Of a DNA stretch of 64,000 nt, positions 1,292 to 50,296 are shown one piece after another. Location: NCBI GenBank assembly GCA_008632985.1, contig QPGO01000021.1, positions 496,001-560,000 on the forward strand. Direction: 5' to 3'. Source of the stretch: Psammoneis japonica (lineage: Eukaryota). Numbering within the stretch: position 1 is the first letter of the stretch; each line of letters begins with the position of its first letter. Both the position numbers and the translations under genes were made by a program. The notes beneath the pieces are model-generated. The model worked only from the letters and a program-made list of their open reading frames with translations, ran no database searches and was not told where the DNA came from.

Positions 1292-1868
1292 TCACACGGT
1301 CGTGCGTTTCGTATTTTACGTTTTGGCCGGCGGAAAGTTGCTCGGTCATACCTGTTTCACTATGTGGATTTGAAGGAAAGGCGTGGAGAGAATGATGTAG
1401 CTATTTATTCCTCTCATCTTTTTCATGCGGCTGGCTTGGTTTGAAACCTTGTCGCCACCCGCTGCTTGACTGTCATTGTTGACAACCCAAAGCACTTTAG
1501 TTATACCCGAAAGTGTGTTGTCACTGTCTAGCAGCTCGTGTACCGGTACATTATTTGATAACGACGGAATAGCGACCGCATTTACCCCTCTTGTAAACTC
1601 GTACTTCCTTATGTTCTCTACGAAACTCGAGCGCTTGTTTAGTTTTCAGTTTTGGAGGGAAAATTGTGACGAGCTTCGGCGTAGGATTAAAAATAACCGT
1701 TCGTGAAGGTTTCAATGTTCCCTGAAAAGTGCGGCAAAATTTTTGTCAAAGAAAAACTGGCGGCAACGCGGCAACCGTTGAGTGAGCACATCCCGTCCAT
1801 GCACCTCGCCTGGCGATCTCCAATCACATCCCTTAGTCTCACTCTTCTTAGTAGTAGTAGCAGATACC

Positions 1869-2767
1869 ATGACGTCCTTGCTGCAAGTCGAACACGAGCA
1901 GCAGCTGTTCCAAAAATCGCTGAAATGGGGACTTTGTGCCTCTGTTTTGTTTCTTTCTGGAACAATCATTGTTGTTCCCTCCGTGTTGTGCGAGATGAAT
2001 CACCGCGTGGCGGAGAACACAAGCAGCAGTCAACGATGCGAAACCATTGCCTCCGTTCTCGCCTTTGTTGGCTGTGCACTCAAGACAGCATCCGTTGTTG
2101 TTGAAATTGTGGTTGATGTCAAACTCAAGCGTCCTGTGGAACACGGGCGACATTGCCATTCTCGGCAATTGACGGATGGAAATCTGACATTGTCAGCATT
2201 GGTCCTGACGGCCATGTTCTTTCAAGGCTTGTACTTTACAATTCGATCCACTGATTGCGGACAAATGCACGACAAGTCTTGGAGTGCATTGAATTTGGCG
2301 GCGAGTTTTGTGTGGCCAGCTTCAGGCTTTCTCATGGTGAAGCATTGCTGTTCGTGCATTCGCCCACATTGCACATTGTCACAACGGCGACACTCGCTGT
2401 CGCAGGATTGAAAATTTTCCAATGCCCCAGTGAGCATCCAACTCTTCACTTGGTTGCATCATGGTCATTTGTTCTGGTCGGAGTGCTCTACGTGATTGCA
2501 GACATTTGGCGTTTTCGCATGGATCCAAAGGAGTTGAACACAAATCCAACAGAACTCGCCAATGATGTCTTGGCACAGTGTGCACAAAGGATGTTGTGCC
2601 ACATGGAAACGAAGACTGAAGCACAATGGTCGACCTTTCACAAAGCAGCAGTGAACGCACTGCCGCAGCGCGGAAACTTGTCGCACGAAACTTTTCATGC
2701 AATGCACACCCTTGCACTCGACTGCAAGGCCCAACACCTGGACCAATGTCCAGTTTCGTGTGGGTGA
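1869..2767 (+). pseudogene. Degraded multi-pass membrane protein gene inside a TpA-depleted block
   Basis: Hydrophobic helices are split across frameshifted ORFs 1782..2411 and 2255..2767. There is almost no Tyr and an excess of Cys/His. No TA occurs at 1870-2231. Confidence 0.45.
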
Positions 2768-3780
2768 GCTAAAGAACATGTTTAGGTGTGCATCTCTTCA
2801 CACTTTTTCTGATGGTGATTTTGTGTGGTGCAGCGGCCATTGGAAGAAACTGGACGAATGCCGAGTTGTCTCCATTGCATTTTCCGTTTCCTGCCCTCTG
2901 TCATTGCATTTTGCAGTCATTGTTGCAAACACCCAGTTACGGATTTTGATGTCATTGTTCCAAATTGGCACAATGGAAAGACACACACCCAACATTGAGA
3001 GACAGACGAAGCATGATTCACTGATGCCAAACACGGCAGATTTGGTTGAGGGACTCACAAGCAGTCGCACACTTTTGAACTTCCTTTCGATCCACTGCAT
3101 GCCATGATGCTGTTTCAGTTTCACTGTTTGTCATGAGAAACTTTGCACTTTTCCATTGTTTCTGATCCCTGGCCTCTGTGTGGGCCTGCTTCAAATCAGC
3201 AGCTTTCTTGTTGAAAAAATGACGACCTCCACCATTTTTTGTTGGATTTGTGGTTGTTGTCACAACCATTGCAGAAACTGTGCCAAGGCTCTGTGTGAGA
3301 TTTTCTTCATCTGGCCACACACCTTGTTCCAGTGCTTGGTGTGCTTCTCTTCTTGCTCTCTCCCCGCGAAAACGCAAAGGCGCAGGCTGCTTCAAAATTT
3401 GTGGGGGGAAGTGGCTTTTCCATCAAGGGATTTTCAGTTGGTCACTGTCTTGATTTCCCTCACTTGCTTTCCCTCACTTCCTTTTGATCCAATGCATGCC
3501 AGTGGCCATCTCAGTTTTGATTGTTGCCTGGGAAACAGTGCCCCAAAACACACGACCTCTGGAGCGTGTGATGATGAAGAAACGCTGAGCAGGAGTCACA
3601 CGATTCAAACCCCAGCAGAAGCGCATGAGTTGCAGGTGCAGTGAGTCTTCATCCAGCATGTGAAAACCCAGCAATCACATGCTTTTAAACTAAGCACAGA
3701 GACAGACTGAACAAAAGCGCTGTCAGTCGTCTTGGCACATGTGCGCATGATGTGATGTACGGCATGAGTTGTGATGAACG
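1870..3780. other. TpA-depleted, TG/CA-enriched block 1
   Basis: About 10 TA in 1.9 kb by eye, against 4-9 per 240 bp in sampled neighbouring genes. Confidence 0.85.
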
Positions 3781-4482: not shown

Positions 4483-4702
4483 CTGTCGGCGTTTGTCGGC
4501 TCTTGTCGGCTCTTGTCGGCGTTTGTCGTACGTTGTCGGGGTTTGTCGGGGTTTGTCGGGGTTGTCGGGGTTTGTCGGGGCTTGTCGGGGTTTGTCGGGG
4601 TTTGTCGGATACGACAAAATTTGTCGTACGTCCGACAAAATTTGTCGTACATCCGACAAAATTTGTCGTATCCGACAAAATTTGTCGTACGTACGACAAA
4701 AT
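4483..4702. repeat. (GGGGTTTGTC)n-like decamer array followed by the right CGACAAAATTTGTCG array
   Basis: Seen directly. All units share the CGACA/TGTCG core. Confidence 0.9.
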
Positions 4703-7393: not shown

Positions 7394-7948
7394 AAGTTCC
7401 GGTGCATGCAGGAAAATGACTGCGGGGAACCGACGAGTCGACCCATGGGCCTCAACAGCCAACTTCATCACGTGGGCATTTGTCAAGAATTGCTCGCCAT
7501 CAATCACAAAAGCCAGTTCCTTTGGATTCACAATGTTGCGTGCGTTGCCACGGCTGAGCCTGAGCCCATTCCACTTTGCCACTTCAATGCGACAAACTTT
7601 TCTGGCCAGAACAAATGTCTGAGACTCTGGCTCTTGATGCAAGGCAACTAAAAGAAGAAGGCCGGTCAACAGAATGAGTCAATAGATTTATAGAGACGGG
7701 GACCACTCAATGCCTTTTAGCATCTCTTTCCGACGAGAAAGAATGACACGAGCTGTGCCGCACTCCTCACCTTTCGTCAAAACGTCTGGCACGTCAGGAG
7801 TGCTTCCTGGATCGATACCAAACTTACGCTTTTGATAGCCGACACCGCAGCTACAACTTTGCCTCTAAGCTATGCCTAACAACTAACATCTCAGTTGGGG
7901 GTCAACACCCAACCATATCATGCAGTAGGGGATAAATCTACGGGCAGA

Positions 7949-8637
7949 CTAATTTTCACAGCATCGAAATCGAGGCGATGAGTTGGCGTTCCCGAGATTG
8001 ATGCCCTTTTCCTTTTTTGTTCCTATTTCTGATGCTCTCTGGCCCATCAACACTGCCATGGCCATGAATGACGTCTCAACATTGACTCCAACCTTTGCAC
8101 TCGACTCAATATATGGAATGCCGAGATCCTTGGCAAGCTCCTGGCCCTGGTCTGCTGTTACTACTCGAAGGTCAGTCAGGTCGCATTTGGCACCCACCAA
8201 TAGCTTGACAGGAGGAGTACTACTGGCATATTTCTCCACATCTGCCAACCAGCTCAAGATATGTTGAAAGGAATCCTCATCGGTGACATCAAACACCAGC
8301 ATGACACCATCGGCTTGGCGATAATAGCTGGCTGTAATGGAGCGAAACCGTTCTTGACCGGCCGTATCGTAAACTTCAAGTCGTACAGTCTTGTTATCCA
8401 CGTCGATGTTTCGGCTGACCACATCGACACCAATCGTCGAAACGTACGTTTCAGAAAAAGAAGAGTGCTGGAGGAGTTGTGAGATTGCATTGCTGGGGAG
8501 CGCGCGAGGCACAGTTCACTCATGGGCAAACAGCATATCATGCAGACTTACAGCATATCTCTGCAAAGACAGGTCTTTCCGGCACCACTGTCTCCAATCA
8601 ACACAACCTTGAAGCGATTGTTGAGCGGCGGTGCCAT
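7949..8637 (-). CDS. Rab GTPase (Rab1/Ypt1-like), 2 exons, with an apparent 1-nt deletion in exon 1
   Basis: Motifs GDSGAGKT, YVSTIGVD, DTAGQERFRSITASYYR, GAKCDL, ESSAK and C-terminal CCxx. Intron at 8468-8551. One extra T near 8567 restores KTCLLQRYA in frame with exon 2. Confidence 0.9.
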
Positions 8638-9078
8638 GGTGCTGTGTGCTTGTGCGTGATTGCTTTTTTCTTTTTTCCTTTTCGATAGTGGGGTCCTATT
8701 TGCTTTAGGTGTGTCAACTTTCCCTCCAACAACAGATGACGTCAAACAGAAATTTATTCATTTCTGTAGCTTACTGATATCCTCTGTGACAGATGAAACC
8801 CGGAGATTTCGCAACACTGCATGCATCCAAGACACAAACTTGTGACGCGTTGGATTGTTGATGCCAACAAGAGATCGAGTATCCAACGACGCTCACAATA
8901 ACTTGACACCCATCACACCATTTGTGCATAAAAGGAAAAGAAACTCTTTTTTGAAGGACTTCAGACTGAGCGCCTTTAGTTTTAAAAATTTCAGAAAGAA
9001 GCATATCAGAAAGAAGCTAAGAAATCTTTCTGATCAAACGAGAACCGCAGAATGCAACAGGGTTCTCTTCGTTCAGCC

Positions 9079-12747: not shown

Positions 12748-12833
12748 TCTTTCTCAAACGCTTGTTGCTTCTTCCCTCTACTCCTATTTCGGTTGTCGTT
12801 ATCATCGACCCATCACCCATCAACCTACCGGTA

Positions 12834-14450
12834 CCGCGTCGGTCCGCCTCATCTCGTTTGTCGTCGTGTCTGCGTGCGCGATTGTGCGGTTGCTTCTTGG
12901 GTGTGTGCGCTGCATGCTGCATGCATTGGTCACATCACGCACAACCAGGCAGTTGCTTGGCAGACTCAAAAGCAGAAAGCAAGGTTGTTTCTGATGTGCA
13001 CAAAAAGCTTTGGTGTTCTGCTGCTTTGCAGCAAAAGGATGGCTGAGCCTCTGCCAGCTGCAACTGCCCCGCCCTGCCTTGCCTCTTTGTCAGAAGAGTT
13101 GAGAGTCAGCCACAAAGGAGAGGGGCTCTCTCTTTCGTTGTTCTTTCTCAGGCCTGGCTTGTTGACCGAGTGTGGAAACGCATGCTTGAGCATTGATGCA
13201 CAATGTGCTTTCTTTTGAACACTTCTTCCTCTCACTTCTTGGCCCAGCCAGAAACACACAACCACTGCTCCTGTTGTTTGGCGCGCCAAGGGCAAGCGGC
13301 ACAATGTCATGAAAGATGCAAAACCAAGAGCGGCAAGAAGGCAATGATGGCACAGAGGGAGGTGTGGTGTGTGTGTGACACAACCTTGCTTTTCCATCTG
13401 ATGCTGGCTGGCATGTCCAGCTCCATTGACCACCAGGTTTTTTGTTGTTGAGACCCTCGCTCAGTTTGTGGCTCTTGTGTGTCTCGTGTGCAGTGTTGGC
13501 TGTCTTTCCTTTTGCAAAATGAAAGCAAAGAGCTTCTTTGGCATTTTGAGGCAATGGCATGTTGACTTTCTGAAAAGCCATTTTTAAAAAGCAAAGCCAA
13601 CTCTGGGTGACATCAGGTGAAGTGCAGCGTGCAGCCTGTCAGTCTCTCAGCCTGTTCCTGGTGCTGTCTCTCTGTGCTGTGTGGAGCCACGGCATGTTGA
13701 AGCCAAACCAGCCACTGCTGAAGTCTCTTGGCCTGCTGTTTGTGCACTGTTTTGCCATGAATTGGTGCTGAGCTGGCTGCCACTGAAGTCTCTCAGCTCG
13801 TTGTCACTTGCTGTGTGAGCTGCAAGCTGCTGCTGGGCCAGATGCTGCGAAAACAAGCTGCGCGCTTTTTGTTCGGTCTTTCACACAGCGTGCTCTCCTG
13901 CCAGAGTGTTTCCAATGCAAGCTGTCTTAACTGTTTGCTGCAAAAATCTGCAGAAAAACTCAGCACAGCAGAGTGTTTGCTGTGCCCCCGGTGCAAAGCG
14001 AGAGCTTGTGGGGCTGGTGCCGGTGTGCTCTCCAGACAAAAAAAGGGTTTTCACAGTTGCTGTGTGGTCTTGCATGGCAATGGAGATTGAGCTCCATTGC
14101 AAATTGTTTGCCAAGTCAGGGGATGTCCAAGTCTTCCCCTTGCGCTTTGCTTTTTCACAGACACGCTTTTCAGCGTGGGGCTGGCTGCTTTCTTTCATCG
14201 AAGCAATGTCTGTCAGTTCTCTGAGTGGCACCCTCGCTGTCACATTTTTCCCACCCACTCCAGTCAGCCAGGACATCATGACCCGCTTTGCCTTCAGACA
14301 TTGTTCAACCCCTGGTTTGCTTGGTTTCTGCAAAATGAGCGAAAAATTCTTCAGGCAGCAAAAAGAACTTCAGTGAGGACTCCAACCCCGCGCCTCTTGT
14401 CTTCGCAAGAACAAAAAGCACAACGCGCGTTGTGCAACTCTTAGTCGCGT
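12834..14450. other. TpA-depleted, TG/CA-enriched block 2 (degenerate sequence, probable repeat relic)
   Basis: Only about 3 TA seen (13585, 13928, 14442). ORFs lack Tyr and are rich in Cys/His/Gln. Confidence 0.85.
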
Positions 14451-15062
14451 TCGTCCAGTGTGCTGTCACTCTGAAACACAGTCGTTTCTACCCAAGCAAA
14501 GTCGGTGCGTGTTGGAAAACAACAACACCATGATGTTCGACAACAGCAAAAAGAACAACACCCGGGATTCCAACGTGGTCCCCCACCGTAGTACTAACCG
14601 GGCCAGAAGATGCTTAACTTCGCTGAGCAGACGGGAAGCGGTGCTGTCATCTTTGTATGGTCGTTCCTGCCTTAAGTAGCGATAAATAAATATATAAACA
14701 CTGAAATTGACATCTGTACGTAACTCCAATCTCTTCCGCGACATCTACTGCCACACTGACAGAAGGAGAGCTCTTTAACTCCTTACTAAGTTAAAGGAAA
14801 ATATGCATTGAATCAACTTCCCAAAAGTAGAGCTCTAGAGTCTAGCAGTAGTGAGCAGCAGGTAATGACGCTGCCTTTCCTCAACATTTCGTTTGTCCGC
14901 CTATAGAGTGCTGGTAGCTAGGTAGAGCTGCTGCTAGCCAGGTATGCTCGAGAGTCCCTCAGCTCAATGCGCCAGCATGCTAAATTCATACAGTCATTCG
15001 AGAGTGTCTGCATCTAGAAATTGTTATTAAAGGTCATCTAATGTTTACCTTGCATTTATCTA

Positions 15063-24394: not shown

Positions 24395-24885
24395 TCAAAA
24401 TTGCTTGACAGTATCAACAATAACACTGATCGCCAAGGGGGTGATTCCGAATGCCCAAATAACAGCCAGAATTGCATCCTTCTTCTTCAACTGTGTATAG
24501 TCAATCTTGGGTGCTCCTTTCTTTTCGGCGTTCTTCTGGTACGCCCAGTCCATGGCATTGTTGAGCTTGGCATCCATGTTTCCCGTTGCCTCGGCCCGGC
24601 TAACTCCAGCGGTAGCCATGTATTTTGAGAACCGCCTGCTCATATTCATCTGCATTCGTCAGCCGAGTGAAAAAGGGGGAAGGACCGTGTCGAAGCAAAG
24701 AACCGATTGGATCATAAGGATAAACACCATCGTCGTCGGGGGCTTTTTCCCACCGTTCCGTTTGCTTGTCGAACGTGGGCTTGCGGGCAAAAAGTGGCGA
24801 CGACTTGCTGCCGCTGAACCTGCTTTGAGGAGCAAACGCAGCCACCGAGGCGCAAAGAATAGAAAGCAAGAGGGACACGCATCAT
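24395..24885 (-). CDS. Small plastid-targeted membrane protein of unknown function (apparent indels near 24620 and 24872)
   Basis: Signal peptide followed by ASVAAFAP cleavage motif. ORFs 24600..24878 and 24395..24655 join at YEQAVLK/YMATAG. C-terminal transmembrane helix. Confidence 0.75.
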
Positions 24886-25180
24886 CGTTGTGGCAAATTT
24901 CTGTCTTGTTCTGTCCACAGATAGTAGCAACAACAAAAACTGTGCTATCTTGCGTCGTCATTGTCACAACGCAACATCCACGGTGCGACGGCGGATGACG
25001 TGTTCACTTTCTCCGGTTCATTCCCGAAACAAGACTGGATTCGCGACTCAAAAGTTCCCTCCGACCCCTTTGTTGAGACCCAATGCCGCACATGCCACGA
25101 CAAAACCGCCCAGGCTTAAGTGGCGAGACAACTTCCAACTTCAGGTCGAAAGCATTGGGCTTGTGGAGTCAAATAAGGTG
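24845..25180 (+). repeat. Dispersed direct repeat, copy A (5' end and upstream region of the plastid-targeted gene)
   Basis: Shares AAAGAATAGAAAGCAAGAG, GATGACGTGTTCACTTT, GACTCAAAAGTTCCCTCCGACCC and AAGTGGCGAGACAACTTCCAACTTCAGGTC with 38200-38617. Confidence 0.9.
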
Positions 25181-25189
25181 TGGCGCTCA

Positions 25190-28100
25190 CAATCTCCTTT
25201 GCAAAAAAACGTCATGCCTCGAGGAGCTGCAAGAGTGTGTTGAGTGATCAAAATGATTTTTGGCAGCACAGCAAACAATGTGAGCAGACGTTGTTGTCCC
25301 TGACAGATGACAGGGTGTTTGCAGGAAGATCTCTCTGGTTCTTTCACACCAGCAGCACACTGAAAACTCTGGCAGTGCTGGGGAGCAAGGGCGCCCAACG
25401 ATGGCACAAAAACAGACAAAAAGGCAGGGCGCACACATGCACCCAGACTGCGTGCGCACAACTCCTTGACACTCAGTTTCTGGGCTGTGCAGATCACACA
25501 CAGAGTTTGGCACCAGCTGAAGATTCTTCCTGCTGCCTCCTCCTGGCCACAGAGAGGGGCCCACTTGAGGCTGCTTTCCTGCGCAGCTTCCACATTGCTG
25601 GGTTGAAGTTGTCTTGTGTGGCTCTTTGTGCCAGCCACTGGTGGCGCAGGCATCACCACAACAGAGCACAGTGCAGTGCCTGTTGCACACACCAGCATCC
25701 TCTTCAGACCAGCATGCCCCACAACCCAGCATCTTCTGTGCTGCAGAACAATCTGTTTCAAGAAATTGGTGTGTGTGTGCAAAAGTTCTGCACACACACG
25801 CACTTTTTTGCTGCATGGTGGCCTTGAAGGTGCCCAAGAGCTTTCTTGTGGATGCTGCTGCTGCCAGCAGCAAGTGCTGTGGACAGACATTGAATTCCTA
25901 AAAAAGACAGACAACATCAATGTTGGAGGCCACATGCCTGGCATTTGATTGGATTGCTTCATTCTCAGTGAACCAGTCAGCACAACCCCCAGAGTGTTTG
26001 GGGTGCTTCTTCAAGCAATGATCTGTGATGCCCTTTTCAGTCCAAGGCACCCCAGCAGAACATCATTTCAAGGGTCAAATCCCACATGTGGTCAACACTG
26101 TCCTCTTGCATGTTGCCCTTTGTGAACTCTTGACTCACTGTGAATGAAGCTGATGCTTCAGAACCCCCCAACAGCTCAAAAGCTGTCAACTGATCATTGA
26201 CCATCTTTTTCAACATGACCAGCAAAAAATGATGGAAATGTCCCTCATTGCATCAAAAGTGGCCAGAGTGCCAGTTGCATGGACAGCAGCCCAATGATGT
26301 TTGACTTCCAACAACTCTTTTTTGCTGGGACAAAAAGCAACAAAGTGTGGCAAGACTTGGCCCAACATTGAGGCTGTCCTGCTTCAATCTGGCATTCTTT
26401 AATGGCATTGAAGGCTGGTGCATCTGATGGGGGGGTTGCCCTCAGATGACAGAAGCAAGCTGTGGAATTGCTTCTTGAGCAGCAGGACACTGTGACAACA
26501 TGCAAGCACTGGCAGAAGAGAAAATGAGACAATCTCTCAAGAGATCTGATCAAGTCAGCCAAAAAGGTCTCACGAAAATCCACAAATCTACAAATCAGAG
26601 CAGACAAACTGGCACCCTCCTCTGATCTGCTGCATCTGTCCAAACAATGCAGGCAGGTCACAGACAACAGACAGTGTGCACAACAATGTGCCAGGAGGAA
26701 GGAAGCCTTCCAGAGGCAAGGTTGCAGACCAGACACAACAAAACAGAAAGGTCAGGCCAAACACAAAAACAATGTGGGGCAGCAACACAGATGCAAGGAG
26801 GCATCATTGACAAAAAACATTGTTTGAAGCATCCCACCATCATCTGGAGTGCATGGCAGGCCAAGAGCTTTGTTTGTGATGCCAGCGCCAGTGTTGATGA
26901 TGCAAGGGACACATCACAGGACAATGTGACCAGTGCCTTTTTTTTTGTCTTGTTGAGAGCAGAATGTTGACACGGCACAAGTGCCCAGTCAGGATGCAGT
27001 TTTGTCTCAGCCAGTGATGTTGGTTGTGAGATTGTTGTCAATGTGACTGAGCCTTGTGCTGATGAAAGGGAGACAGTGGCACCAGCCAGCACACATCCAC
27101 AGCCAGCAGCTGGAGGAGGGGATGGATTGGCATGACAAGTTCACTGAGTGGACACAAAAAGGCAAGGTCAGATCTCAGCCCAGCCTCTTGCAGTTGATGT
27201 CCCAGCACTTGACAAAATTTGAGTGCTTGGCTGTGCCTTGCACCTTTTTAAAGTGAAGCAGTGGGTGGGAGCAGGTGCACATGAAAATTTGGACTGGGCC
27301 ACAACAACAACTCAGCAAGCAAGTTCTGACAGCTGAAGCCACAGGACTCAGCCAACTTGTCACATTCTTGCAAGTCTTCATCAGGGCCAACTTCAGAGCA
27401 CATTGCAGGCACCCAAGTCAACAGGCAGCAGAGCACCCCTGCAGTCTTGAGCAGGTTTGGTGGCAGCAGGAGTCTCCCACCCATGTGGTGCGAGCACAAA
27501 ATGGATGCAGCCATGGTGACATGCAATCAAAATTGAGTTGTCACATTGACAAGCATTGATCCATGCCATTGAACTCAGTGTGCAAACCAAGGCACTTGAT
27601 GAAGGCAAGTCTTTGGATGGCAGTTGAAGTGCTCCAGCACCAAGCAGCTCAAAATCTTGGTTGCAGCAACAGGTTTGGCTGGCAGAGAACTTTCATGTCA
27701 GCTCAAGAGCAGGCATGCTTGTCATGACCCATGCTTTGAAATGGCAAGATTGCATCTGGCAAGACACCATCAGCACCCTGCTCCTGCAGGAAACTGCGAG
27801 CTGGATCATGACCTTGAAGAGCCCAGTGCATTTGCAACCAACCAAGTTGATTGTGCGTGCACATGCAAGAACACCAAGGTTTTGACATTTTTTGCTGAGT
27901 TTCTCCCTCGTGGAAAGCCACACAATTTTTGCACTGGAACTCAACTCACAAAAATGCATTCTCAATTGTCACAACTTGTTCCCCATTGATGCAAGGTGCC
28001 ATGCTGCATTGATCATTGACCACACTGCCTTTGGAATGTTCTCCCACTCATTGCAGCAGCACTGTGAGTGGAAAGACTCCAAAACAAAAGAGTCCGGGTC

Positions 28101-31100
28101 TTTTAGACGACCAAGCAGAAAAATGGAAGAAAGTGGCCAAGCAATGCAGGAGATGCAGAAAGAGCAGCATGGATGAAGTGCACATGCTGCAAGCAGCAGC
28201 AGCAGGAGAGTTGGAGGATGACACAGCACAGGCAAAACATGTGGATGTGTGTTTTGTGCTGAATGCATGACAACTCTCCATGGTGTGCAAGGCTGTGCTC
28301 CACTGGAGTGTCCGTGTTGCTGGAACAAGCACAAGAAAAGGTGCTGGGTGACATCAATGCAGCAATTGCACATTGGCAGATGTCATCAGAAGGAAGTCAA
28401 AGCCTCAGAACCAGCAATGTTCCTGCCTGTTAATTTGGCAGTTGACCTGCTCAATTGGCCAATTTGGCATCCCACAAAACAGTGCAGTGAACTGCAAATG
28501 TTTTGATGATGGTTTGCCATGATGATGACTCAGATTCAGCAAGTCCACAGTCAAGGTGCAAAGTGCTTTGTTCATGTCTTCCCATGTCACCAGCAACCAA
28601 ACTCACAGAAAAAATGAAGAAGCTTTGTGGGCTGTTTTGTCAAGCTGCATGGACCTGTCACAATGGGCGCTGCAAACACCAACATTGTCTTGCCTTCAGA
28701 GCTGCCTCCGTCAGCAACAACAACAAGTCCTGAACATTTTTTCCAGTGCACATGGAAAGTTGAGTTGCTGCTTTTCTGATTGTCGACAGGGAAGTTCAGC
28801 ATTGAAAACAAGGAAGGAACACACAGTGCAAGTGAACAAATGTCCCTCTTTGCAGCAAAAGAGCTCATGATTTGAAACACCACCCACCAACCAACTCTTC
28901 TTCAGCAAGTGACAGGCAACCATCTTGAAATGCACCGTGAGTCACACATCAAGTCAAGCAATTGCCATCAAAAATTTGTTTTTCTGCAAGTGAATCACAT
29001 CTCTCAATCTTGGAAAGTGCAAGCTGGTGCGTGCTGCATTGCTGAAATGGTGGGACATGATGGAGGCAACTTGTGGGCTCCTTGCAGTCTTCTTTGACAA
29101 CCTCTGGTTTTGGGCACAATGAGCAAGTGCTGGACATCTGCAAACTGCTGTCATTGCAGCGCAAAGGTTTTGACAAGGAAATGGTTGATGCAGGTTTGCC
29201 AAAGCATCCTGCCGGGGTTTGCAATGTGAGCAATCCATTGTCATGACCTTGGTCAGATTGCCGTTTGATTCATTCATGGTGTGCACCCCAACACTTCATG
29301 CCTGGTTCCACAAGCATGCTGTGCTCTCTCATTGCTTGTTTGATCACATTGAAATGATGCTTGAATTGGAGTCAGAATTTCCAACTGTGGACAAATGGCA
29401 TGAATTGCCAAGTGACACATCTTCAAATGAAGATGTCATCCATGGGCTGTTGATTCCAGCTGAAACTGGCAATGCCAAGATTGTGAATGTTGAGCTTGAG
29501 GACACAAGTGAAGCAACGGCAGAGTCAGAGGATCTAGAACACACAATTGACATCAACCTCAATGACTGCAACCCCAACTTGGATGATCTGTCCCAGGACT
29601 GCGGGTCAACATGGGGAACAAGGGCTTTGCACAGCATCAATGACCTGAAGTTGGAGGTGCCTTGGATGCATGATCTGGGCAGTGCAAGGACAACACGACA
29701 GCTTCATTGATGTGGACTTCATCTCAGGGAGAAGGCTTTGCAGCCATGCTGTGACAAGCTTGTGGAGGATTCTGAAAGCTCTGGCAACAGCGCAGACAAC
29801 ACTCTCCAACATCCATCATGCACATGACTGTGGGATTGCATTGGGCCAAGATTGGGTGCCTGCATTTGCTTTGTTGAAACAGAGAGGTGAGGAACCAAAT
29901 GAATTCAAAAAGCACAATGCACACAATGGATCAATGTGCACAGAAATGATGTTTGTAAAGAAAATGAAAGGTGTTGTGTTGGCAGATGCATTTGCATGGC
30001 ATGTGACATCTCATTTTTGAAAGTCAGAAAAAGCTCAAGACTTCATTTTGTTCCTGTTGGACCCAACACAGTCACAAGCTGAATTTGCTGAAGCCAATGT
30101 TGCACTCATTCTTGGGGCAGCATGATGGAAAGCAGCTGGGGCCCCAACATGCTGGTGGCAAATGCAGGCAAGGTCTCTCCCATTGATGTTGCAGGCTTCA
30201 TGATTGAGCGGGTGTTTCTGGCCCTGCTGGACACATGATCAATGGATGTCCCAGGCATGATTTGAGACTCAAAACAAAATGGACCATGGCATGGTGCAGA
30301 CCCCAAGCTGTGTTAAAAAGCACGCAAGTGCGTGTGCCTTGATGTTGTTTGCCACAACACATGCCTGTTTGATGCTGTTGCCAGGTTGCTCCTCTGCTGG
30401 CATCCTGGTGCTTTCTTCTTAAATCCTTCTTGGCAGCTCAGGCGAGATTGGCCCAGCTTCTGTGTTCCTCTTCCTGATGCTCATGGCCCAGTCTGTGCCA
30501 TGCTTGCACCTTCTCCACACTCAAATGCCAGTTGAGTGCTGGCAACCATGTTTTTTGTTTTTCCCTTGCAGGCAACACTTCTTTTCCAAATCCACTGGCA
30601 AGACATTTGGCAAATCAAGAGCAACTGGTGATTTGGGATTGGCCCCAGTGACGCCAACGGCATTGGCATCAGCACCCTTGTTGTCATCAGAATTGGCACC
30701 CTTGTCATGAGTGTCAGCACACTCATGTTGGCACTGTTGGCATCCTTGCTGGCATCAGAGTCCTTTTGTTGCCTGCATCACTGTCCATTGTTTTTCCCAG
30801 ATGATGATGAGGAGTCACCCATTTGCCTTGTCTTTCTCCTCCTGGTTTTCCTGGCCTTGGATTCTTTGTGTCACCCAATGATGTGTTGACGAGCTTCCCA
30901 AAGATGACAACAATGATTGCATGGGCTCATTGGCTGATCATCCCAGCCTTTGGCTTCTTTTCATTGCCCAACGAGGTTGTCCAGCTCCCAGAAGACAATG
31001 ACAATTGCAGCCACACTTGCTTTTTAGAGGAAACAGTGGCAATGCAAGTGAGCCTTTCATCCAATGAACTGATGCTTGACAACACTCATCATTGGTGGCT

Positions 31101-34100
31101 GCTGCGGCTGCCACTGCTGATGTTTTCTTTCTGTGGCTCACTTGTTGCCTTGTGGTGCAGTGAGATGTTGATTGTGTTGTGGGCCTTCTCCAGCAGGAGA
31201 GTCAACAGGCATGTCTTCTCCATCAAATTCCCACACACTGCTTTCAGCATCACTTGTCATGCTCAGTTTTGGGTTTCAAAGGTGAGATGAATCCAGGAGA
31301 GTCAGCAGCAACAATGAAATGTTGCCTGAATCAACAAGATGCAAGAGTGCAGGAAATGACAAATGGCATCTTTGTGAGTTGATTTCCAGTTCAAAAATTG
31401 TGCAGCTTTCAGAAACTCAGCAAAAAATGTTGCAGCCTCTGTTCTCATGTGTGGATGCATGATCAAAGTTTGGTGCAAAAGAATCACACCACACACCACA
31501 CACCACACTGTGGCACCACATCAAAGACCACAAAATCAGGTTTGAACAGTTTTGTTGAACAGTGTGTGTGGGGACCTTTAGGACCACCACGCCACACACT
31601 TTACAACCCATCAAAGCTGCCACAGAGTGAACAACAAAACAGGCACTGCATTGGTTGACCAGTGCAGGGCAAATGATGCAAAGCTGGCACACCAGTGCCG
31701 AAAGATCCATTGCATCATTGCCACAAGCATTGTGCTCCATCAGCTTTTCTCAAGGTGACAACTTTCAAAAGTTCCCAAAGCTTGTTGCTGGGAGGAAATC
31801 AAAGAGAGCTCAAAGCAGCACAGTTGTGTTTAATGCCTGGGCCAAAAAGGTCACCAGGAACCTTGCATTCTGAAAATTTGGTGTCTGGGAAATGGGTGGC
31901 AGCACGACAGCACAAGTTTTCCATGGTGAGTGCAGGGACATGCTCCATTTTTGCCCAGCACCGGTGGTGGCAGAAAAATGTTGTGGCCCACCAAAGCCTG
32001 CTGAAGCTTGCAAAAAAAAACTTTCATTTGGGGGCAAGAGCACAATCTTGAAGTTAGAAGAACCCATTTTGTAGAGCCATTCTTGCAGCTCCACTGAACA
32101 GTCATGACAGACACACCCACACCATCAACAGAGACAATGTGCACACTCATGATCTTGTTCCATGAAGCCTTGAAAGAAGAAAAGAGGCACAAAGCAGAGC
32201 TGATGCTGTGTGGCACCAGAGAGGCATGAACAAGCAGAGCCAATGCTGTGTGATGCCAGAGATGTGTTTGAGAACAAGTTGTCACAGTCAGCTCCAAATC
32301 ACATGCAGAGTCAAGAGGATGACCTTTCGCAGCACAAGACAAAGTCTGTGCAAAAGAGTTGGAAGCCAAGCAAAGCTGGTCAACATCTGCTTCTCTTCAC
32401 TTTCAGCTGGAGTTGGCTTGGCATCATGTGCACATCACAAATGAGGAGCAACATTTGGAGGTGTCTTGTCATGAGACATTTCATTCGTGCCCTTGTCAAG
32501 CTGCACATGCCCAGCAATCTTGGTGCAAGAGGCCCCACAACCATGTGCTGCAAACAGCCAGCTCTCAGCAGTGCTGGAGGACATCTGAGAAAGACACCCT
32601 TGCAAGAACCATTTGAACAAAAGACTGGGCACATTGGTGACCAGGCAAAAGCACTTGCACCCAAACATGACACCCAACCACACACAAAGCATGGAAATCA
32701 TTGGCTTGTCAAACTGCCACAGTCAAGGGAGCTGCATCTTGACCCTTGGATCACATCACATTTTCTTGACAGAGTGCAGCACGTGCCATGTTTGCAGCTG
32801 TTGAGTGGCCAAATTCCACAGGGCTGCTCAACTGAGTGCGCATCCTTTTCTGTTGGGCACATGCCACTGTGAAGTCATCCTCAAAAAGCAAGTTGCCAAA
32901 CTTCAGGCTTGCTGTGCAACACACCACCTTGATCCACAAAAATGTGTGCTTGTCCAGACATTTTGTCAAGTGCTCTTCCAACAACCAAAACAAAGCTGGT
33001 TCAAAGAAGTTGCCTTGGAGAAGCAAGTCACATTGTGTGGCTGTTGAGAAAAGTGACTGCAAGAAAGAGTCCGAAAACCCTTTTGCCACTCAAGCCAAAA
33101 CAGCCTTTGAACAATGACAGGGCCTTTGTGGGGTTGAGTTGGCACCCAAGTTGAGCTGGGGCTGGCAGCCCCCTTCATTTGCTTGGCTCAATGCACACAT
33201 GGGACAAGAACCCAAAGGTTGGGTGCAATGACTGATCTTGCTAAAAGCTCCTTCTGTGCACTCAAGTCACACAAAAGATGGCTGGGAGATGTCCAAGTTG
33301 TTGACACCAGAGATGGCACTTGGCACCTGCCTTGAGAGATTGAGCCATGATGCACCATCCTTGACACAATGCTGAAACAGAGCATTGTGGAGCCTGCAAA
33401 CTTGAAGGATCAACTTGGGTTCTTCAAGAAAAACAGAACCTTCATTTTTGTGATGTGTGCTGATCAGAGTGGCTGTGGCAGCCTTGCATCCTTCAGCAAA
33501 AGTCAGATCATCCTGTTTTTGCTGCACAACTCAGCCATCAAAAGAGCTCCATCTAATTGCAGAAGCGCCAAAGGGCAAGTGAAGCAATTGCCGTTGATCA
33601 CAGCCAGCCTTGTGTGCAATCACATCCTGACTCAAATGAGGGCAATGGCGTGCAATGAACTTGCAGGTGCCAAGAGGATTGAAGAAGTTTAAAGTGCAAC
33701 CTTCACATTCTTTTGGGGGGTTGAGAGCTGTGTTGCTGCCAAGCAAAGCACACTCATCTGTTGGGGCAGACCAAAGCAAAGGATGGCACTGTGCCTGAAA
33801 CAAAACATGCCCAACAGAGTGATTCACAGGAATGCATGAGTGGCCAAAGCCTTGAGGTGCACCACACTTGTCCCCTCAAGAGCTGGCTGCACCTTGAGTG
33901 GACAGGGGCCAGCCACCATCATGATGTCCTGGCAGCAGCGTGGGGGTCAAGTTTGCTGTTGCCAGCAAAAGGTGCGCCAGTGCCCGGCTGAGCACAGCAC
34001 TCATGAGCATCAAAATCAACTGAGTTGGCCAGACAAGAGTCATGATGAGTGTGTTGGATGATGATTGTGAGGGCTGTCTGCAGGTGAAAATTCAAAAAGA

Positions 34101-36370
34101 TGCAAGTGGAGTGTTTGCAGCTGTGTGCCATTCATCCTCCTCAGCAAGTTTGCTGTGGCCCAATTCAAAAAGCTCTTTGCTGACTGCACCAGGGTTGACA
34201 TCAACCCTTTTCCTGGTCAGAGCAAGATGAGTGGGGGTCATCATCAGGTGGGGTGGCAGCACCAGATGGGGCACCAAAGTGCACCCATCTGCTGTCATCC
34301 TGCTGGTGGCATTTGCTGTGTTTTGGTGCTGGAAGGAGAGTGTGGGCTGTGTTGCAGATTTGAAGCCAACTGTTGGACTTGATGAACAGGTTTCAGGTGG
34401 CACAGATCTGTCTGAACCTTTGAGCAGATGTTTTGGTGGACCTTGTTGGAAATTGGAAGTGTGTGCTGAGCTGACAAAAACAAATGTGGAGACCCTCAGC
34501 ATGTGTGGGTTGTTTGTCAAAGCCAGGCAGTTGCAAAACAATGCCTGCCAGCATGCAGCCACAAGAAGACATGACTGTTCACAGGCAGCTTCACTCATCC
34601 AGAGCAACCTTGACATCTTGAAAACTTGTGTCAAGGACACATGACAAAGGAGTTGATTCTCTTTCCATGGCTGAAACATCTGGATCAGCAAGTTTCAGAG
34701 GGCCAAAGGCACCCCTGTGGGGAGTGACAGCATTTGAGAAATTGGAAGGAGGAGCTTCCTCTTGATGGCTGGTGCTGGAGGTGCTTCAATGGTGTTGGTG
34801 CCAGCAGAATGATGGTGTGCACCACCATCATGATGAGGATGACCCCAATTGTGAAAGCAATCAAAAAATGAACAGATGTGATTGAAAGCACCTGGGTGGG
34901 AGGGCCATCTGCCTGACACAAGAAAGCAGACAGTGTCTTGACAATCTCCAGGCTTCAGCACACTTGTGCAACAGAGCAGTTGGCCAGCAGTGCTCATGGG
35001 CAGCCCAAGCAAAAAACTTTGAGTGCTTGACATTCTTGATGAGAAACATCATTTCCCTTGGGTCATCCAAAGTGGAGTCAACGTCAAAGATGTGCATGTG
35101 CAGCTGAAGGAAATCCTTGAAAAACCCAGGCAGCGATCTGCAAGCAAAGATTCCCCCCACCAGAGCAGCCATCAACCATTTTTGCTTCTTTGTCATGAAA
35201 AGCTGGGCAACGATGGTGTGAGATCTGCTTTGCTGTTTTTCTTTGGGCCATTGCTGCAGCATGCTGGTGTGATGGCACAACGACGATGTGCTTGCTGCCA
35301 CTGGGGAGCATTCATCAGAGCATGACAAAAGCTTGTGGGCCATGCTCTGAGCTTCTTTGCAATGAACTCACATTTGTCAGGGGGAAGATCATTGTCCACA
35401 CTGCTGCCAACCAAAAATCCCCAATGGCTGCCATGCTGGTCCAAAATGAATTGCCAGTGAATGGACATGAAAACCAGCATCAGAAGCACAGCACCAGAGG
35501 GTTTTACATCTCCAAGTGCTCAAACTCTGGCAGGTGAATCATCATTGCAAACACATTCAATTTGCAAAGGAGCATCTTGTGACCCAGTGCAAAATTCATT
35601 GCAAAACAACAAGTGCTGCCAGAAAGAGTTTTTAACCAGGTTGCTCACAGGCCAGACAATGCACCGTGCAGCCCACCACAAATGAGTGCATGCTTTGAAA
35701 TGATTGGCCAGGCAGCAACATCAGGCAGCAAAGTCCTGGACAGGAAACTTTTTGCACTGATCAACAAGGAATTTGCAGCTGCTGCCACCAGTGGAGGCAC
35801 AGGTGCTTGCTTGGGTGGGCATGTGAGAGGAAAGAAAACTCACTCTCCAGACCAAACAAGCAAATTTCATCTCCAGATCAAAGTGTGTGTGAGCTGCAGC
35901 AAAACATTTCAATGAGAGGAACATCTCAAGGGTCTTGGAAATTGTGACCTGAAGATTCTTGTGAGTGAGACAAGTCTTGCCCTCTTTTGCTGGTGACACC
36001 ATGTTCAGAGCAGCTGTTTCCATCATTGGTTGAAATGATGAGTCAATGTGATTGTGGTTGCCATTTGGGGGTTGTGGATGGCCAACCCAGTGTTTTTGGA
36101 AACTCTCCTCTGCAAGTCCACAAGTTGTTTCTTTTTCAAACTGCAGCATTGGCAGTCGTCTTTGAGCCATTGCCAGCATCACCAAATCTCCTGGTCTCAG
36201 CCCCACCAAGGCAACGGAATTTCTGAGAAGAGGCCAGGTCGGCTGATTGTTCTTCTTTGACAGGATCGCAAATCTGCCATCCATTTTCTGTTGCCAGCTG
36301 GCTCTCCAGCACCGGCAGGCAGGTGCACCAGACGACTCGGACATGTTGCCACACAGAAGCGGCGTGTTGT
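25190..36370. mobile_element. About 11-kb TpA- and CpG-depleted degenerate block (probable transposon or viral relic, family not identified)
   Basis: About 21 TA in 11 kb, with 0 TA and 9 CG at 25261-25860. Only short, nearly Tyr-free ORFs rich in Cys/His/Trp. The composition is directly visible, while the mobile-element origin is inferred. Confidence 0.55.
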
Positions 36371-36461
36371 GGCGCGGTAATGAGGCACTGGCAGAGTTTA
36401 ACAAGACATTACACCGATCCTTTTCTATAGCTAGCTTCCGATCTGCTGTAGCTGAGTCACG

Positions 36462-38089
36462 TCAAAACTTTCGAAGATCATTTATGATTCTGTCAATTGC
36501 ACGGTGGTCTGACTTGATCACCTCGCGTAAGATTTTCGTCTTGTCTTCGGTCGAGCTCGCAGCAGCATCCAAACAACTGGTTGATCGGTCCGCAAATGGA
36601 TGCTGTCCTGTCACGAGAGTTCGATCAGGAATAAATCCAAACTCTTTGGCGTACAACAATTCGCATACACACCACATTCGACTGTACAGATCTGTCACGG
36701 GATTGCGCACAACGACGAATTGCGACGCGTCCTTGAGAGCCACCACAAATGGTGATTTGTCGATTGCGGAACTAAGCTGATTTTTGATAATCTCTGAATC
36801 TCCCTGTGTTAAGGCTAATGCACAAATCCAAAAGGTAGGTTTCTTGAAATGGTGTCGGAAAGCGCCCAAAAGAGAGCTCACGAAGTCATCAAACGGTTCA
36901 TCCCAGCAGTGGGTCACGAAGGTGTCAGCTTTCAGACCATTTGGGTTTCGTGAAAGAGCATATGAAGTCTCTGATTCCCGACATTTTGGACTGAGAATGT
37001 GCTCGTTTATGTCATGCATTGTCTTGGTTGCCAAGTCATTTCCAAAGTATCGGGTGACCTCATTCCGCAATTCCACCAGCTGATCATAGCTTACACCCCA
37101 CAATTTTGGTTGGTTTTGGGGGAGATTGCTGGCCTCCATAATCAGTTGATGCTCCTCTGCATCTTCAAGAAGTTGAACACAATCCTGTTTATGCCACTCC
37201 TTTGCCTCCTGGAGGGCTGTGAGACCCTTCGTGTTGAGAATTGTCATGTCAGCACCGTTTTCCAGCAAAATGGGTATCACGGAACCTTTCCCATTATAGC
37301 ATGCTTCATGGAGTGGTGTCCAACCGCTGTCATCTTGACAATTAACCCCTGCGCCTTTCTCAAGCAACAGCAGAATTGTGTCTCCATGGCCATGTCGACA
37401 AGCATGGTGGAGACAGGTGGATCCATTCATGTATCGAATGTTTGGATCTTCCCCACCGCTAAGAAGTTGGTGGAGAGAGTCAGTGTCATTCTGTTTGGTA
37501 GCTTCCAATAAACGGTTTTGATTTTGTATTCGAAAATCGTCAAGTTGAAGATTCGGAGCGTGGGCAGTGTTGTCTTGGCTTTGTTGCGATAATGCGCTCC
37601 TTTGTGATTCAACGCGAATGGATTTCTTATTCGGAGCAGACGTATCCTGCGATTTAAAAGCCTCATTCCACGTTTTCACGACTTGATCAGGGCACTGACT
37701 TGGGAAGCATCTGATGCAGATTCCCTTGTGTACATGTTCATTGGTCAAGGTCGCTTCCTTGAGCAATCTAGCTTCGTGTGTCACAACACCACAACCACCA
37801 CAACGCCGCCCCCCCTTCTTCTTTTGCCATCTTCTGTTATGAGTAGTGGAGCAACACTGCCATTTGATACATCAAATCTTCGAATCAGTCTAACCTTTCC
37901 GGATATGTAGTTTCGTTGTGTCATGGCGGAAAAATCGATATCGTAGATTTTCGTCCCAGAGAAGAGCCGGAAAGGATTGCCGTAATTCTTCTGACAAATC
38001 CTTTCAATCTGTTCTGAGGTACTTGCATCATAGTCATACCATTCCTGCCCCTCCGCATGGCAAAGGTAGAATTGCCACACGACCGTCAT
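36462..38089 (-). CDS. WWE domain + ankyrin repeats + C-terminal TIR/HET-like domain protein (frameshift near 37785)
   Basis: WWE: WQFY..EWYDY..IE..YDIDFSAMTQRN..GKVRLIRR. Ankyrin: GSTCLHHAC, GWTPLHEAC, GLTALQEA. C-terminal domain: FVTHCW, FWICALAL, YSRMWCVCEL. Confidence 0.75.
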
Positions 38090-38199
38090 GATTGGCGTAG
38101 AGGTCTGCGCGATGTTGTTTTATTTCCACTTCCCGACAACGGGTTACTGTGCTGTGCGGTACCCAGTGATACTTATTTACTTACTTGCAAACGCAACCA

Positions 38200-38299
38200 C
38201 TGAGGCCAAAGAATAGAAAGCAAGAGAGCACGCATCATCGTTACGGCAAATTCCTGTTTTTTCCTGTTAATCAGCAGCGTAAGAATGTGGCATCAGGTG

Positions 38300-38330
<31 letters not shown>

Positions 38331-38617
38331 TGTGTAGTGTCTATTTTGAGTAGGTTCAGGTATCAGCGTCGTCATTGTTGATCACAACATCATGACCCAA
38401 ACAAAACGGTGACGATGGATGACGTGTTCACTTTTTCCTTTTTCAATCTGGAAATCCCCAAACAAGACTGGATTCACGACTCAAAAGTTCCCTCCGACCC
38501 TGCTCCGACCTGCGTTGCGGCCTAACAACGCCACGACAAAACGGCCCAAGCGGCAAGTGGCGAGACAACTTCCAACTTCAGGTCAATAGCATTGGGTAAA
38601 TGGAGCTAAACAAGGTG
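38200..38617 (+). repeat. Dispersed direct repeat, copy B, containing a (GT)n microsatellite at about 38297-38335
   Basis: Colinear similarity to 24845-25180. Confidence 0.9.
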
Positions 38618-39204
38618 CTTTTGCTATCCCTTATGGAGAAAGTGGTTTTGTGTTGTCTTTCAAGACACAGAACCAAGAGGCTGGAGAGTGTAGTCGTGGT
38701 TCATCACATTGCAGACTGGAGTGAACCAAGCTCAAAGCTTGATGGATAATGCGAAGAAGAAGTGAACGTGTTTCATCCCATTTCAATCTATGTGTCTGAG
38801 ACGCTTGCGGTGGACTTTCTTTCAATGAAAGCGGTGTTCGCATGCTTTGCGAAAGCTTTGCGCAGATTCCATGAGTCCTGAGCCATTGAAATACTCTAGC
38901 GATGCAGCGGACATTTCTAATAAACATTGTTATCAGTGACAGATGATAGGGTATATACGTATACAGCCCAAGTGGTTACTTCGTTTCTGGCACTTGTGAA
39001 TCTTCCTCGACACTTTCGCCAGTGACAACTGAAAACTGGCGATGGGGCGTAAAAACTAATACGGAGGATGAAAGTCGAAAGCCAAACTACACATGAATCC
39101 TTGACGTTTCACCGCTCCAATCTAGTGAAACGATTTCTGAATACGTCTTGGCAGTCTCGACACAACGTCTCTCCATTGGAGACAACGCTTCTGGACTGTG
39201 CAGA

Positions 39205-40330
39205 CTAGTCGTATGCAGCTAATAGTTGGACACACTCCATGTCTTGCCAGAGTCGACTTGAGACTTTCTTGCGTGGCCTCCATCGCGCCGGATTACAAAC
39301 CGCCTTGTGGCTCCCATGCCAATCGCTGGCGAGACAGGCATCGCTGCAATAGAATGCAATATAACACCTGTTGCATACGTTAATATCCTCGGACTTTTTC
39401 CCGCAACAGTTACATTGGGAACACCCTGTTTCAAATGAGCACACGCAGCTTCAGTAAACTCCTTTACTGTAGAACGGCCTTGAAGGCTCCCAAGGGCTTT
39501 CGTCAAGACGTCGTCGCCGCCAGCAGCAAGCACTGCAGATTGGACAACGTTGACATGAGAGAACATCCGTGCCATTGGATTTTTTCATTCTCAGGGTATT
39601 GCTCCATACACTCCAGAATGTTTGGGATGCCTCCACAAGCAACGATTTGTAACCGGAGTGTGTCCCAATCCAAGGTATCCCGCCGATAGAACATTAGTTT
39701 GGCGATCAGATCCAATGCGTATTGAGCAATATGCCCTTGTGTCTTGCCTTCTGTGACTTGATTCCTCATGAATGAAATTGATGCTTGAATCCCCCCGGCC
39801 TGAACGACAGCGGCAGCCATCGACTGATCGTCAGCCATATCGCCTAACATGAGCAGTGAAGTCAGAACGGCTGAACCAACAAGTTCTCCTAACTGCTCGG
39901 GCATTTCGGCCTCGCAAATGTTCCTCATTGCGGCAAGCATGGTCGGAATGCCGCCAGCCCGGAATATAGCCCGCTCGACTTCTAACTCCTCTTTGAGAAC
40001 CACAGAGAACAGCACGATTTGGCCTGTCACTAAGGCTGTCGCATTTCGATCCAGCATTTCTTTCATGGCATTGAGGAGTTTACCAACGCCACCAGTTTGG
40101 AGGAAAGCGCGAGTTGCCCGGTGCTCAAACTCATGAATGAAATCATGGAGAAACTTTATGGCGTGACAGACCGCCAAATCATCTGTCTCTGACGAAGTAT
40201 CGAAGGACGACAGGTGGGAGACAATTTCTGAGATACAGTCGAGTAAACCGTGGTCATCTTCTTGTAGAGTTTGTTTTGGTTCTGGAGCAGATCTTCCTTT
40301 CACTCTGTTGCGCCTGCTCTTTTTTCCCAT
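39205..40330 (-). CDS. ARM-like repeat protein with C-terminal MYND zinc finger (frameshifted)
   Basis: CNCC...CNRC...YCSDACLASDW..HKAVC is a zf-MYND pattern. The GGIP/GGVG helical repeats are ARM-like. Confidence 0.75.
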
Positions 40331-40574
40331 GATGAACGAATCGGTTTTACTCTCTCAAGAGCTTGCGAGAGCGTTTAGAGCTGTGTGCGTTTGTTGGCGT
40401 ATATGGTATGGAGACAGAGCGAGTGGGAAGATAAAAAAAAGCGTGTCAGCTTTGGCAACCTTTGCCGACAGCGGACAGCGGCGACATAACAATGAACTCA
40501 TTGCACCATCGCACATCGCGCATCCACCGCGTAGATACCGCGATGATTTTTGGCGCGCAGCCACCTACCGGTAT

Positions 40575-49836: not shown

Positions 49837-50296
49837 TTCATTGAGTAGGAACGGTGGTATATTTCCTCGAAATAGCAAGCAGAGAGAGATGAGGATCTTT
49901 TCTCATCATCGGCAGTCGCTAATCGAATCTGCAAATCGCCATCGAACATCGATCATGTGGCGCACATCAACTTCAACAATGTTTCGACTTGATGGACTGA
50001 ATTCCAAATTTTGTGACGAAAATGGAAGTGCCTTCATAGAATGACTAGTGACACAATCTATTTATGTCAAAGTGAGAACAACTGACGTTTATCTAAGTAT
50101 TGGAAATGGTAAGGTCATCATGATTAAAAATTATTTAACCCCATGACCGTTGATACCGTATTTCGGATCGCATCGCCCACAAATTATTAGTGCCGATTCG
50201 CCATTGCCGTTCCATTTCCATCGTCCCGCAACTCTTGACTGGCGTTTGAAACGCTATTACGTTGAAGGAGAAGACAATACATTGTTTCTTGTTACG

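Follow-up and report, generated by a model that had tools for sequence, protein, structure and literature searches.

We analysed a stretch of 64,000 nucleotides from Psammoneis japonica (contig QPGO01000021.1, forward-strand positions 496,001 to 560,000), here called the window, whose own numbering is used throughout. It is ordinary gene-dense eukaryotic DNA, interrupted by an 11-kb block from which the dinucleotide TpA is almost absent. The block occupies the interval from the genes on the side of the ricin-type lectin domains to the 3′ end of a minus-strand gene encoding a protein with WWE and ankyrin domains (Table 1). A Pfam search of its six read-through frames recovered no family, the two rows returned being at chance level (E 0.23). 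The sequence is complex and not a simple repeat: a single 24-nt tandem array was found in 11.5 kb, and the sole internal repeat is a 111-nt inverted match (27847-27957 and 31366-31466, 75% identity). Together with two smaller blocks of the same kind, it gives about 23% of the window a TA-free signature.

Table 1 Coordinates of the TA-free blocks, the duplicated segments and the adjoining gene (o/e, observed/expected ratio; ORF, open reading frame)
Feature	Position	Strand	Details
TA-free, probably hypermutated block	25175..36377	.	11,203 bp; from TpA count and dinucleotide o/e
CpG-poor core	25800..36157	.	0-8 CG per kb in 26001-36000
Left margin	25175..25800	.	0 TA and 11 CG in ~625 bp; CpG partly lost
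Right margin	36157..36377	.	TA absent until 36378; CpG kept
Probably hypermutated paralogue within block	25223..26450	.	Aligned to 38851-40130, identity 61-66%
Duplicated segment outside block, not hypermutated	24830..25181	.	Aligned to 38290-38618, identity 83-86%
Normal-composition copy	38290..40354	-	Intact 283-codon ORF at 39506-40354, minus strand
Second TA-free block	1865..3686	.	TA o/e 0.06, CG 0.62, CA 1.76, TG 1.61
Third TA-free block	12832..14442	.	TA o/e 0.03, CG 0.44, GC 51%
WWE-ankyrin gene	36465..38119	-	Ank_2 E 1.5e-30, WWE E 4.2e-12
TA-free zone of contig L002	6955-8583 (1.6 kb; numbering of L002)		Metagenome contig of a relative; 2 TA vs 68 expected (P 4e-27)

Composition and limits of the TA-free block

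The flank rate of 4.3% predicts 481 TpA for the block, and 21 were seen (Poisson P 3.7e-173); CpG was seen 75 times against 558 expected (P 1.9e-146). Expressed as o/e, TA stands at 0.03 in the block versus 0.52 and 0.61 in the two flanks, and CG stands at 0.11. CA and TG reach 1.88 and 1.89, compared with 1.22-1.34 in the flanks. All remaining dinucleotides lie within 0.84-1.31, the base composition equals that of the flanks, and TG and CA occur in near-equal numbers (1267 and 1365). Each of the ten successive 1-kb segments of 26001-36000 holds zero to four TA (o/e 0-0.06) and zero to eight CG (o/e 0-0.15), with a mean TG/CA o/e of 1.81-1.96; the segment 25001-26000 holds three TA (o/e 0.05) and has a CG o/e of 0.33.

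The six-frame translations carry the same imprint. Stop codons in the block are TGA 601 times, TAA 26 times and TAG 11 times, versus 567, 267 and 329 in one flank. Tyrosine accounts for 0.02% of residues versus 2.57% in a flank, and cysteine, histidine, tryptophan and glutamine are raised. An earlier note on this DNA had described about 21 TA in 11.2 kb with none at 25261-25860, scarce CpG beside abundant TG and CA, six-frame translations poor in tyrosine, ending mostly in TGA and rich in these four residues, and sharp edges. Our counts agree with it on every one of these points, the TA gap in question spanning 25174-25899.

The last TA to the left of the block is at 25174, TA resume densely from 36378, and both limits are sharp to within tens of bases. 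The CpG-poor zone (approximately 25800-36157) is narrower than the TA-free zone. In the right margin, CG persist at 36157, 36215, 36240, 36267, 36313, 36333, 36338, 36360, 36363, 36373 and 36375. This right edge adjoins the 3′ end of the WWE-ankyrin gene, whose stop codon is about 90 bp away.

A related copy, the direction of change and its context

Direct repeats and alignments revealed that 24830-26450 is collinear with 38290-40130. The homology falls into two parts, between which about 230 bp occur in the normal copy alone. We aligned both parts under two scoring schemes: a neutral scoring, which gave 923 aligned sites, and a transition-lenient scoring combined with gap filters. The part outside the block (24830-25181 against 38290-38618) differs by 8-10% transitions and 6-7% transversions, and the part inside it (25223-26450 against 38851-40130) by 21-28% transitions and 7-13% transversions. 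The normal copy has a TA o/e of 0.55-0.56 and a CG o/e of 0.80-0.93. Its ORF gave a weak ARM-like Pfam match under the family cut-off, and a search of proteins 155-496 aa long at E 1e-3 yielded no homologue. Because this related copy has normal TA and CG, the composition of the block was evidently acquired in place and is not intrinsic. The duplication continues past the block edge at 83-86% identity, and the boundary therefore cuts DNA that was once continuous.

Following individual dinucleotides from the normal copy into the block showed where they went. Under neutral scoring, the 32 TA in the normal copy are all lost: 17 correspond to CA, 10 to TG and 5 to other dinucleotides. Its 46 CG correspond to CA (15), TG (14), CG (3) and others (14). 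The transition-lenient, gap-filtered alignment gave 7 CA, 5 TG, 3 others and no TA for 15 TA, and 11 TG, 10 CA, 1 CG and 6 others for 28 CG. In the gap-filtered alignment, the changes inside the block comprise 59 A→G, 55 T→C, 57 C→T and 41 G→A. Two signs against a regional TA→TG/CA process had been set down beforehand, namely copies equally free of TA and no excess of TA→TG/CA. Neither appeared: the 38851-40130 copy is normal in both TA and CG, and 27 of the 32 TA had become CA or TG. The polarity, from TA and CG towards TG and CA, is suggested by the composition and the intact ORF of the normal copy, because the reverse would need dozens of parallel TA- and CG-creating changes in a copy with an intact reading frame.

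Further relatives of the block were sought within the window. A low-stringency blastn search returned the paralogue (25574-26411) and the 111-nt inverted match and nothing more, purine/pyrimidine k-mers recovered the same paralogue and no others, and an ungapped purine/pyrimidine diagonal scan (150 nt, at least 78%) found no match. At the protein level, the block ORF at 25144-26010 showed no similarity to the normal-copy ORF. A purine/pyrimidine codon score for calling strands was dropped because it failed to tell the strands of known genes.

The loss of TpA depends on the neighbouring bases (R, purine; Y, pyrimidine). Among the 21 surviving TA, 16 are in YTAR, 3 in YTAY, 2 in RTAR and none in RTAY, while YTAR makes up 15% and RTAY 31% of the 1610 TA of the flanks; the surplus of YTAR among the survivors has a binomial p of 6e-10. 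YTAR is the sole class with a purine 3′ of the A on both strands. The alignment agrees less strongly: RTAR went to CA nine times and to TG once, and YTAY to TG four times and never to CA (Fisher p 0.005). With the strands folded, A→G affected 70 of 189 sites whose 3′ neighbour is a pyrimidine and 28 of 170 with a purine there (p 1.6e-5), an effect that also appears when sites with a 5′ T are left aside (p 5e-4). By 5′ neighbour, the changed fraction was 23/52 after T, 27/88 after A, 27/121 after C and 21/98 after G. Independently of the alignment, RCAR and YTGY together take a larger share of the four informative classes in the block (0.604; p 0.0017) and in the two small blocks (0.643; p 0.0009) than in the flanks (0.553), and the TG-minus-CA skew tracks purine content in the block alone (r -0.50, p 0.019; flanks +0.18). 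These sequence patterns point to 5′-T-A-pyrimidine (5′-TAY) as the preferred target. CpG outcomes in the alignment show no flanking-base asymmetry and are equal on both strands, as expected of spontaneous 5-methylcytosine deamination. The surviving CG of the core, with 17 RCGY and 7 YCGR among 53, raised the possibility that CpG is lost preferentially at YCG, which was rejected given the symmetric alignment outcomes.

The alignment also bears on how long the process lasted. In the gap-filtered version, 9 of 46 CA had become TG and 9 of 37 TG had become CA, both double changes, and all 83 sites had outcomes other than TA and CG. Under neutral scoring, the double changes numbered 10/74 and 12/67, and one of the 74 CA had become CG. 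Background transitions of about 24% per site predict that roughly half of the CA→TA/CG events would be pushed on to TG, a proportion that yields approximately the observed fifth. The near-absence of single changes into TA or CG, taken with the double changes, therefore argues that the removal of TA and CG was active while substitutions accumulated; the rarity of single transitions into either dinucleotide fits their quick resolution.

Smaller blocks, a metagenome relative and the gene neighbourhood

Both smaller TA-free blocks sit in gene-free intervals and have lost part of their CpG. A Pfam search of the two found no match, and neither has a paralogue within the window. At 14550-14668 on the minus strand, 108 bp past the third TA-free block, there is a solitary 5S rRNA gene (Rfam, 100.8 bits). 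Directly beside the block at 1865-3686 lie 69-nt inverted arms (3769-3837 and 4882-4950, 78% complementary). Between these arms stand arrays whose 10-bp units are TTTGTCGG-like and CGACA-like, and CpG o/e reaches 1.78 in 4001-5000; the structure at 3769-4950 may represent a satellite or one end of a mobile element.

When metagenomes were scanned with the WWE-ankyrin protein, three loci came up at 45-49% identity. Two were ordinary, so that one of the three contigs from relatives, L002, has a TA-free zone. In this zone, CA o/e is 1.55 and TG o/e 1.34, and CpG is unchanged (o/e 0.91). Its G+C content is 53.8% versus 46.6% in the remainder of the contig, and its RCAR plus YTGY share is 0.661 versus 0.552. 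Since TA is gone from L002 while CpG is normal, TpA loss and CpG loss are separable. Across all cases CpG o/e forms a gradient, from 0.91 in L002 through 0.62 and 0.44 in the small blocks to 0.11 in the large block, which is compatible with a fast TpA reaction and a slower CpG decay, following it or running alongside it in larger domains. The same contig carries DUF6824 and a minus-strand ORF at 7799-9136, open at the contig end, which overlaps the TA-free zone and has no Pfam match.

The genes of the window encode a cyclin, a DUF6739 protein, a Rab-type GTPase, a carnitine acyltransferase, a P-type ATPase, ricin-type lectin domains, the WWE-ankyrin protein, UbiA, ApaG, subtilases followed by PT-repeat proteins, an EME1/MUS81 C-terminal domain and Xrn1, in addition to the 5S rRNA. 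Several ORFs of 2.3-3 kb are uninterrupted; genes of Bigelowiella natans, an organism discussed below, are rich in introns. The best database relative of the 767-residue DUF6739 ORF is 56% identical, short of the near-identity to be expected had the window come from an annotated genome such as that of B. natans, and the homologues of this protein bear uninformative names. DUF6739 and DUF6824 are mainly diatom families, and a literature search found nothing on either. Pairs of a subtilase gene and a long PT-repeat gene occur at 50147-55267 and 56627-60896, with 12-nt arrays at 53238-54131 and 59304-59752, and look like a local duplication.

Public sequencing run X1 contains 98% of the sampled words. 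Run X2 comes from the same sample and its kind is our guess; it covers neighbouring genes and gives no cover over the block, and was not used as evidence. No RNA data carrying block sequence were found among the listed runs. In both X1 and X2 the WWE-ankyrin gene (36390-38187) also occurs in another form, at similar depth, which departs from that of the window by 146 differences and 22 gaps across 1.8 kb; this form represents either a paralogue or a highly diverged allele. For the block itself, neither run yielded a further version at a likeness of at least 90%. One X1 contig (depth 37.7) joins short pieces that match 33607-33636, 36159 and 39777 with matching sides of about 30 nt; it may reflect a short repeat or a different order of the DNA in a second haplotype.

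Mechanism, rival explanations and meaning

We conclude, with a probability of roughly 0.78, that this gene-free block underwent a long-lasting transition hypermutation at TpA and CpG that was confined to one domain. The core proposal of the earlier note, a region-limited TA→TG/CA process running as a reverse of repeat-induced point mutation (RIP), thereby gains support from the paralogue alignment and the composition. In the mechanism we propose, the dominant reaction would convert the A of 5′-TpA to G, best in 5′-TAY, and could start on either strand, with TpA ending as TpG or CpA. A second reaction would act in the core and turn CpG into TpG or CpA, most simply by 5-methylcytosine deamination. 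New TA and CG created by ordinary transitions would be removed again, until all pyrimidine-purine steps end as TG or CA. The candidate agent is an adenine deaminase that acts on DNA and resembles TadA or ADAT2. The domain would be silent and methylated, silent chromatin would serve as the targeting cue, and neighbouring active genes would set the limits; any role in genome defence is likewise putative. The changes in the block would be differences accumulated over a long time and not new mutations, and CpG decay may be a separate layer among them.

Several known systems resemble parts of this process. RIP turns CpA into TpA, so that TA is gained, and hits both copies of a duplication. Like ascomycete RIP, the process in the block consists of transitions concentrated in one region, ruins coding capacity and leaves its mark on dinucleotide frequencies, but here TA is erased and CA and TG are raised, and one of the two copies was hit while the copy at 38290-40354 kept its normal TA and CG. 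CpG decay through 5-methylcytosine accounts for equal CG→TG and CG→CA changes on both strands and for the low CpG of the block, yet it cannot remove TA; with TA gone and CpG untouched in L002, two reactions are therefore needed. ADAR enzymes favour 5′ neighbours in the order T > A > C ~ G, and the A→G changes in the block follow the same order. Unlike ADAR hyperediting, the change is fixed in genomic DNA, and A→G and T→C are mixed at single-base scale instead of forming strand-coherent runs. The tRNA adenosine deaminases TadA and ADAT2 have U33-A34-C35 in tRNA-Arg as their natural target, an anticodon-loop context that the 5′-T-A-pyrimidine preference suggested here resembles; their activity on chromosomal DNA would be putative.

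To our knowledge, no cellular process that removes TpA from selected stretches of nuclear DNA was known before a preprint of 2026. According to its main text, mutation-accumulation lines of B. natans show de novo TpA→TpG/CpA changes at about 6e-7 per site per generation, a local mutation rate about 1000-fold over that of the genome (Mettrop et al., bioRxiv 10.64898/2026.01.13.699255). Of the 302 new single-nucleotide mutations in the nucleus, 231 fell in an integrated giant-virus region and a virophage region. With one exception these regional mutations were A→G or T→C, and those were all at TpA; in the nucleocytoplasmic large DNA virus (NCLDV) region, 210 of 211 mutations were A/T→G/C and the TA Rho is 0.45. 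The genome holds 124 TpA-depleted, CpA- and TpG-enriched clusters, mostly unannotated, and such regions are often viral or transposon-derived. The authors propose an ADAT2-like deaminase as the agent and remark on the liking of ADAR for a 5′ U. The terms "CpG", "context" and "trinucleotide" are absent from the main text, and the supplements may hold such data (10.64898/2026.01.13.699255). The view that the process was undescribed thus no longer holds; our literature search found no further description of a TpA-erasing hypermutation besides this preprint.

As far as that main text goes, the block shares with B. natans the TpA→TpG/CpA change on both strands, the sharp regional limits, and the clustering of TpA-poor, CpA- and TpG-rich DNA. 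Under the cluster rule used for B. natans, 11 consecutive 1-kb segments qualify (25001-36000; TA o/e 0-0.06, mean TG/CA o/e 1.78-1.96), although our o/e may differ from their Rho. Unlike the B. natans regions, the block is saturated (TA o/e 0.03 versus a Rho of 0.45 in the NCLDV region), its six frames gave no match to a domain of a virus or transposon in the Pfam search, and a duplicated local segment is the source of 1.3 kb of it or more. It also shows the wider 5′-TAY context, whereas the B. natans main text gives no flanking context.

The same end state, with TA and CG turned into TG and CA symmetrically on the strands, would be reached by biased repair instead of deamination, if a T:G-mismatch glycosylase or short-patch repair resolved mismatches at TpA and CpG in that direction. 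Very-short-patch repair is held to deplete CTAG in Escherichia coli, the present data name no enzyme, and the option had already been raised in the earlier note. Such repair would, however, need a steady supply of mismatches, and the rate given for B. natans in the main text of the preprint is high for replication errors alone. The 3′-pyrimidine effect on A→G away from a 5′ T is also simpler for an enzyme that reads the base itself, and we consider biased repair unlikely. Still less probable, to our mind, is a composition that is intrinsic or selected, either in foreign DNA that avoids TA and CG or through selection against nucleases or RNA decay. RNA viruses avoid UpA and CpG, the block contains no recognisable host gene, and the regions of B. 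natans are often viral or transposon-derived (10.64898/2026.01.13.699255), all of which would suit such an origin. The normal-composition paralogue and the duplication that crosses the block edge largely refute it. Moreover, the depletion reaches 97% and extends to each strand and every frame, with neither a long ORF nor a domain there for selection to act on, and the same signature recurs in three separate, unrelated blocks.

A sequencing or assembly artefact, for instance through base-calling errors at modified bases, is the explanation to which we give the least credence. In its favour, the sole run that contains the sequence may be the one from which the assembly was built, and no record gives the platform of that run. 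Contigs made from X1 by another assembler nonetheless cover 24843-36208 in four pieces (24843-28323, 28300-28716, 28688-29672 and 29647-36208) with 0 differences, at an even depth of about 36 (word depth 35-38). These contigs exclude an artefact of assembly or polishing, but not a platform effect. The block also differs from its paralogue by indels and transversions, and the TA-free signature is also present in an independent metagenome assembly from a relative.

Against the conclusion that the block was hypermutated in the way proposed, several observations must be set. C→T changes, both at CpG and at other sites, match A→G in frequency within the block, whereas the new mutations of B. natans were almost exclusively A/T→G/C; the block has lost CpG as well, a dinucleotide that the B. 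natans main text does not mention. Sites outside TA and CG show 17-28% transitions in the block alignment versus 5-8% in the flank; these may partly be old divergence, if the better-kept flank is constrained, or may partly stem from the same mutator at lower efficiency. Neutral scoring weakens the context asymmetry, with RTAR giving CA seven times and TG once, and YTAY giving TG twice and CA once. The evidence of origin is a single alignment of about 1.2 kb, which leaves the other 9.9 kb of the block without a traced origin. No outgroup was found for the polarity, which leans on a single paralogue, and a Pfam search found no deaminase gene among the genes of the window. The earlier note had considered that raw reads from another platform might restore the TA; the X1 contigs keep the block TA-free, but X1 may itself have given rise to the assembly and so is not independent support.

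Beyond B. natans, this locus contributes saturation, a separable CpG decay, the 5′-TAY preference, a duplicated local target, and an edge at the 3′ end of a gene. A broader idea, which we offer tentatively and regard as rather doubtful, is that TpA-directed hypermutation is not peculiar to a single chlorarachniophyte but is a mutator that works on silent chromatin widely among eukaryotes. It would act on any untranscribed DNA, duplicated cellular genes included, fill the intervals between active genes, read 5′-TAY as a tRNA-anticodon deaminase does, and continue over evolutionary time until all TA are gone; one enzyme may even serve for the adenine of TpA and the cytosine of CpG. A second case, this one saturated and apparently in an organism other than B. 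natans, together with a third in a metagenome relative, would mean that the mutator is widespread, and RIP would have a counterpart that raises G+C instead of lowering it. Such a mutator can render genes, transposons and viruses unrecognisable, which would account for "orphan" blocks of DNA. The 5′-TAY preference and the separability of TpA and CpG loss narrow the search for the enzyme, which would be a natural adenine editor of chromosomal DNA.

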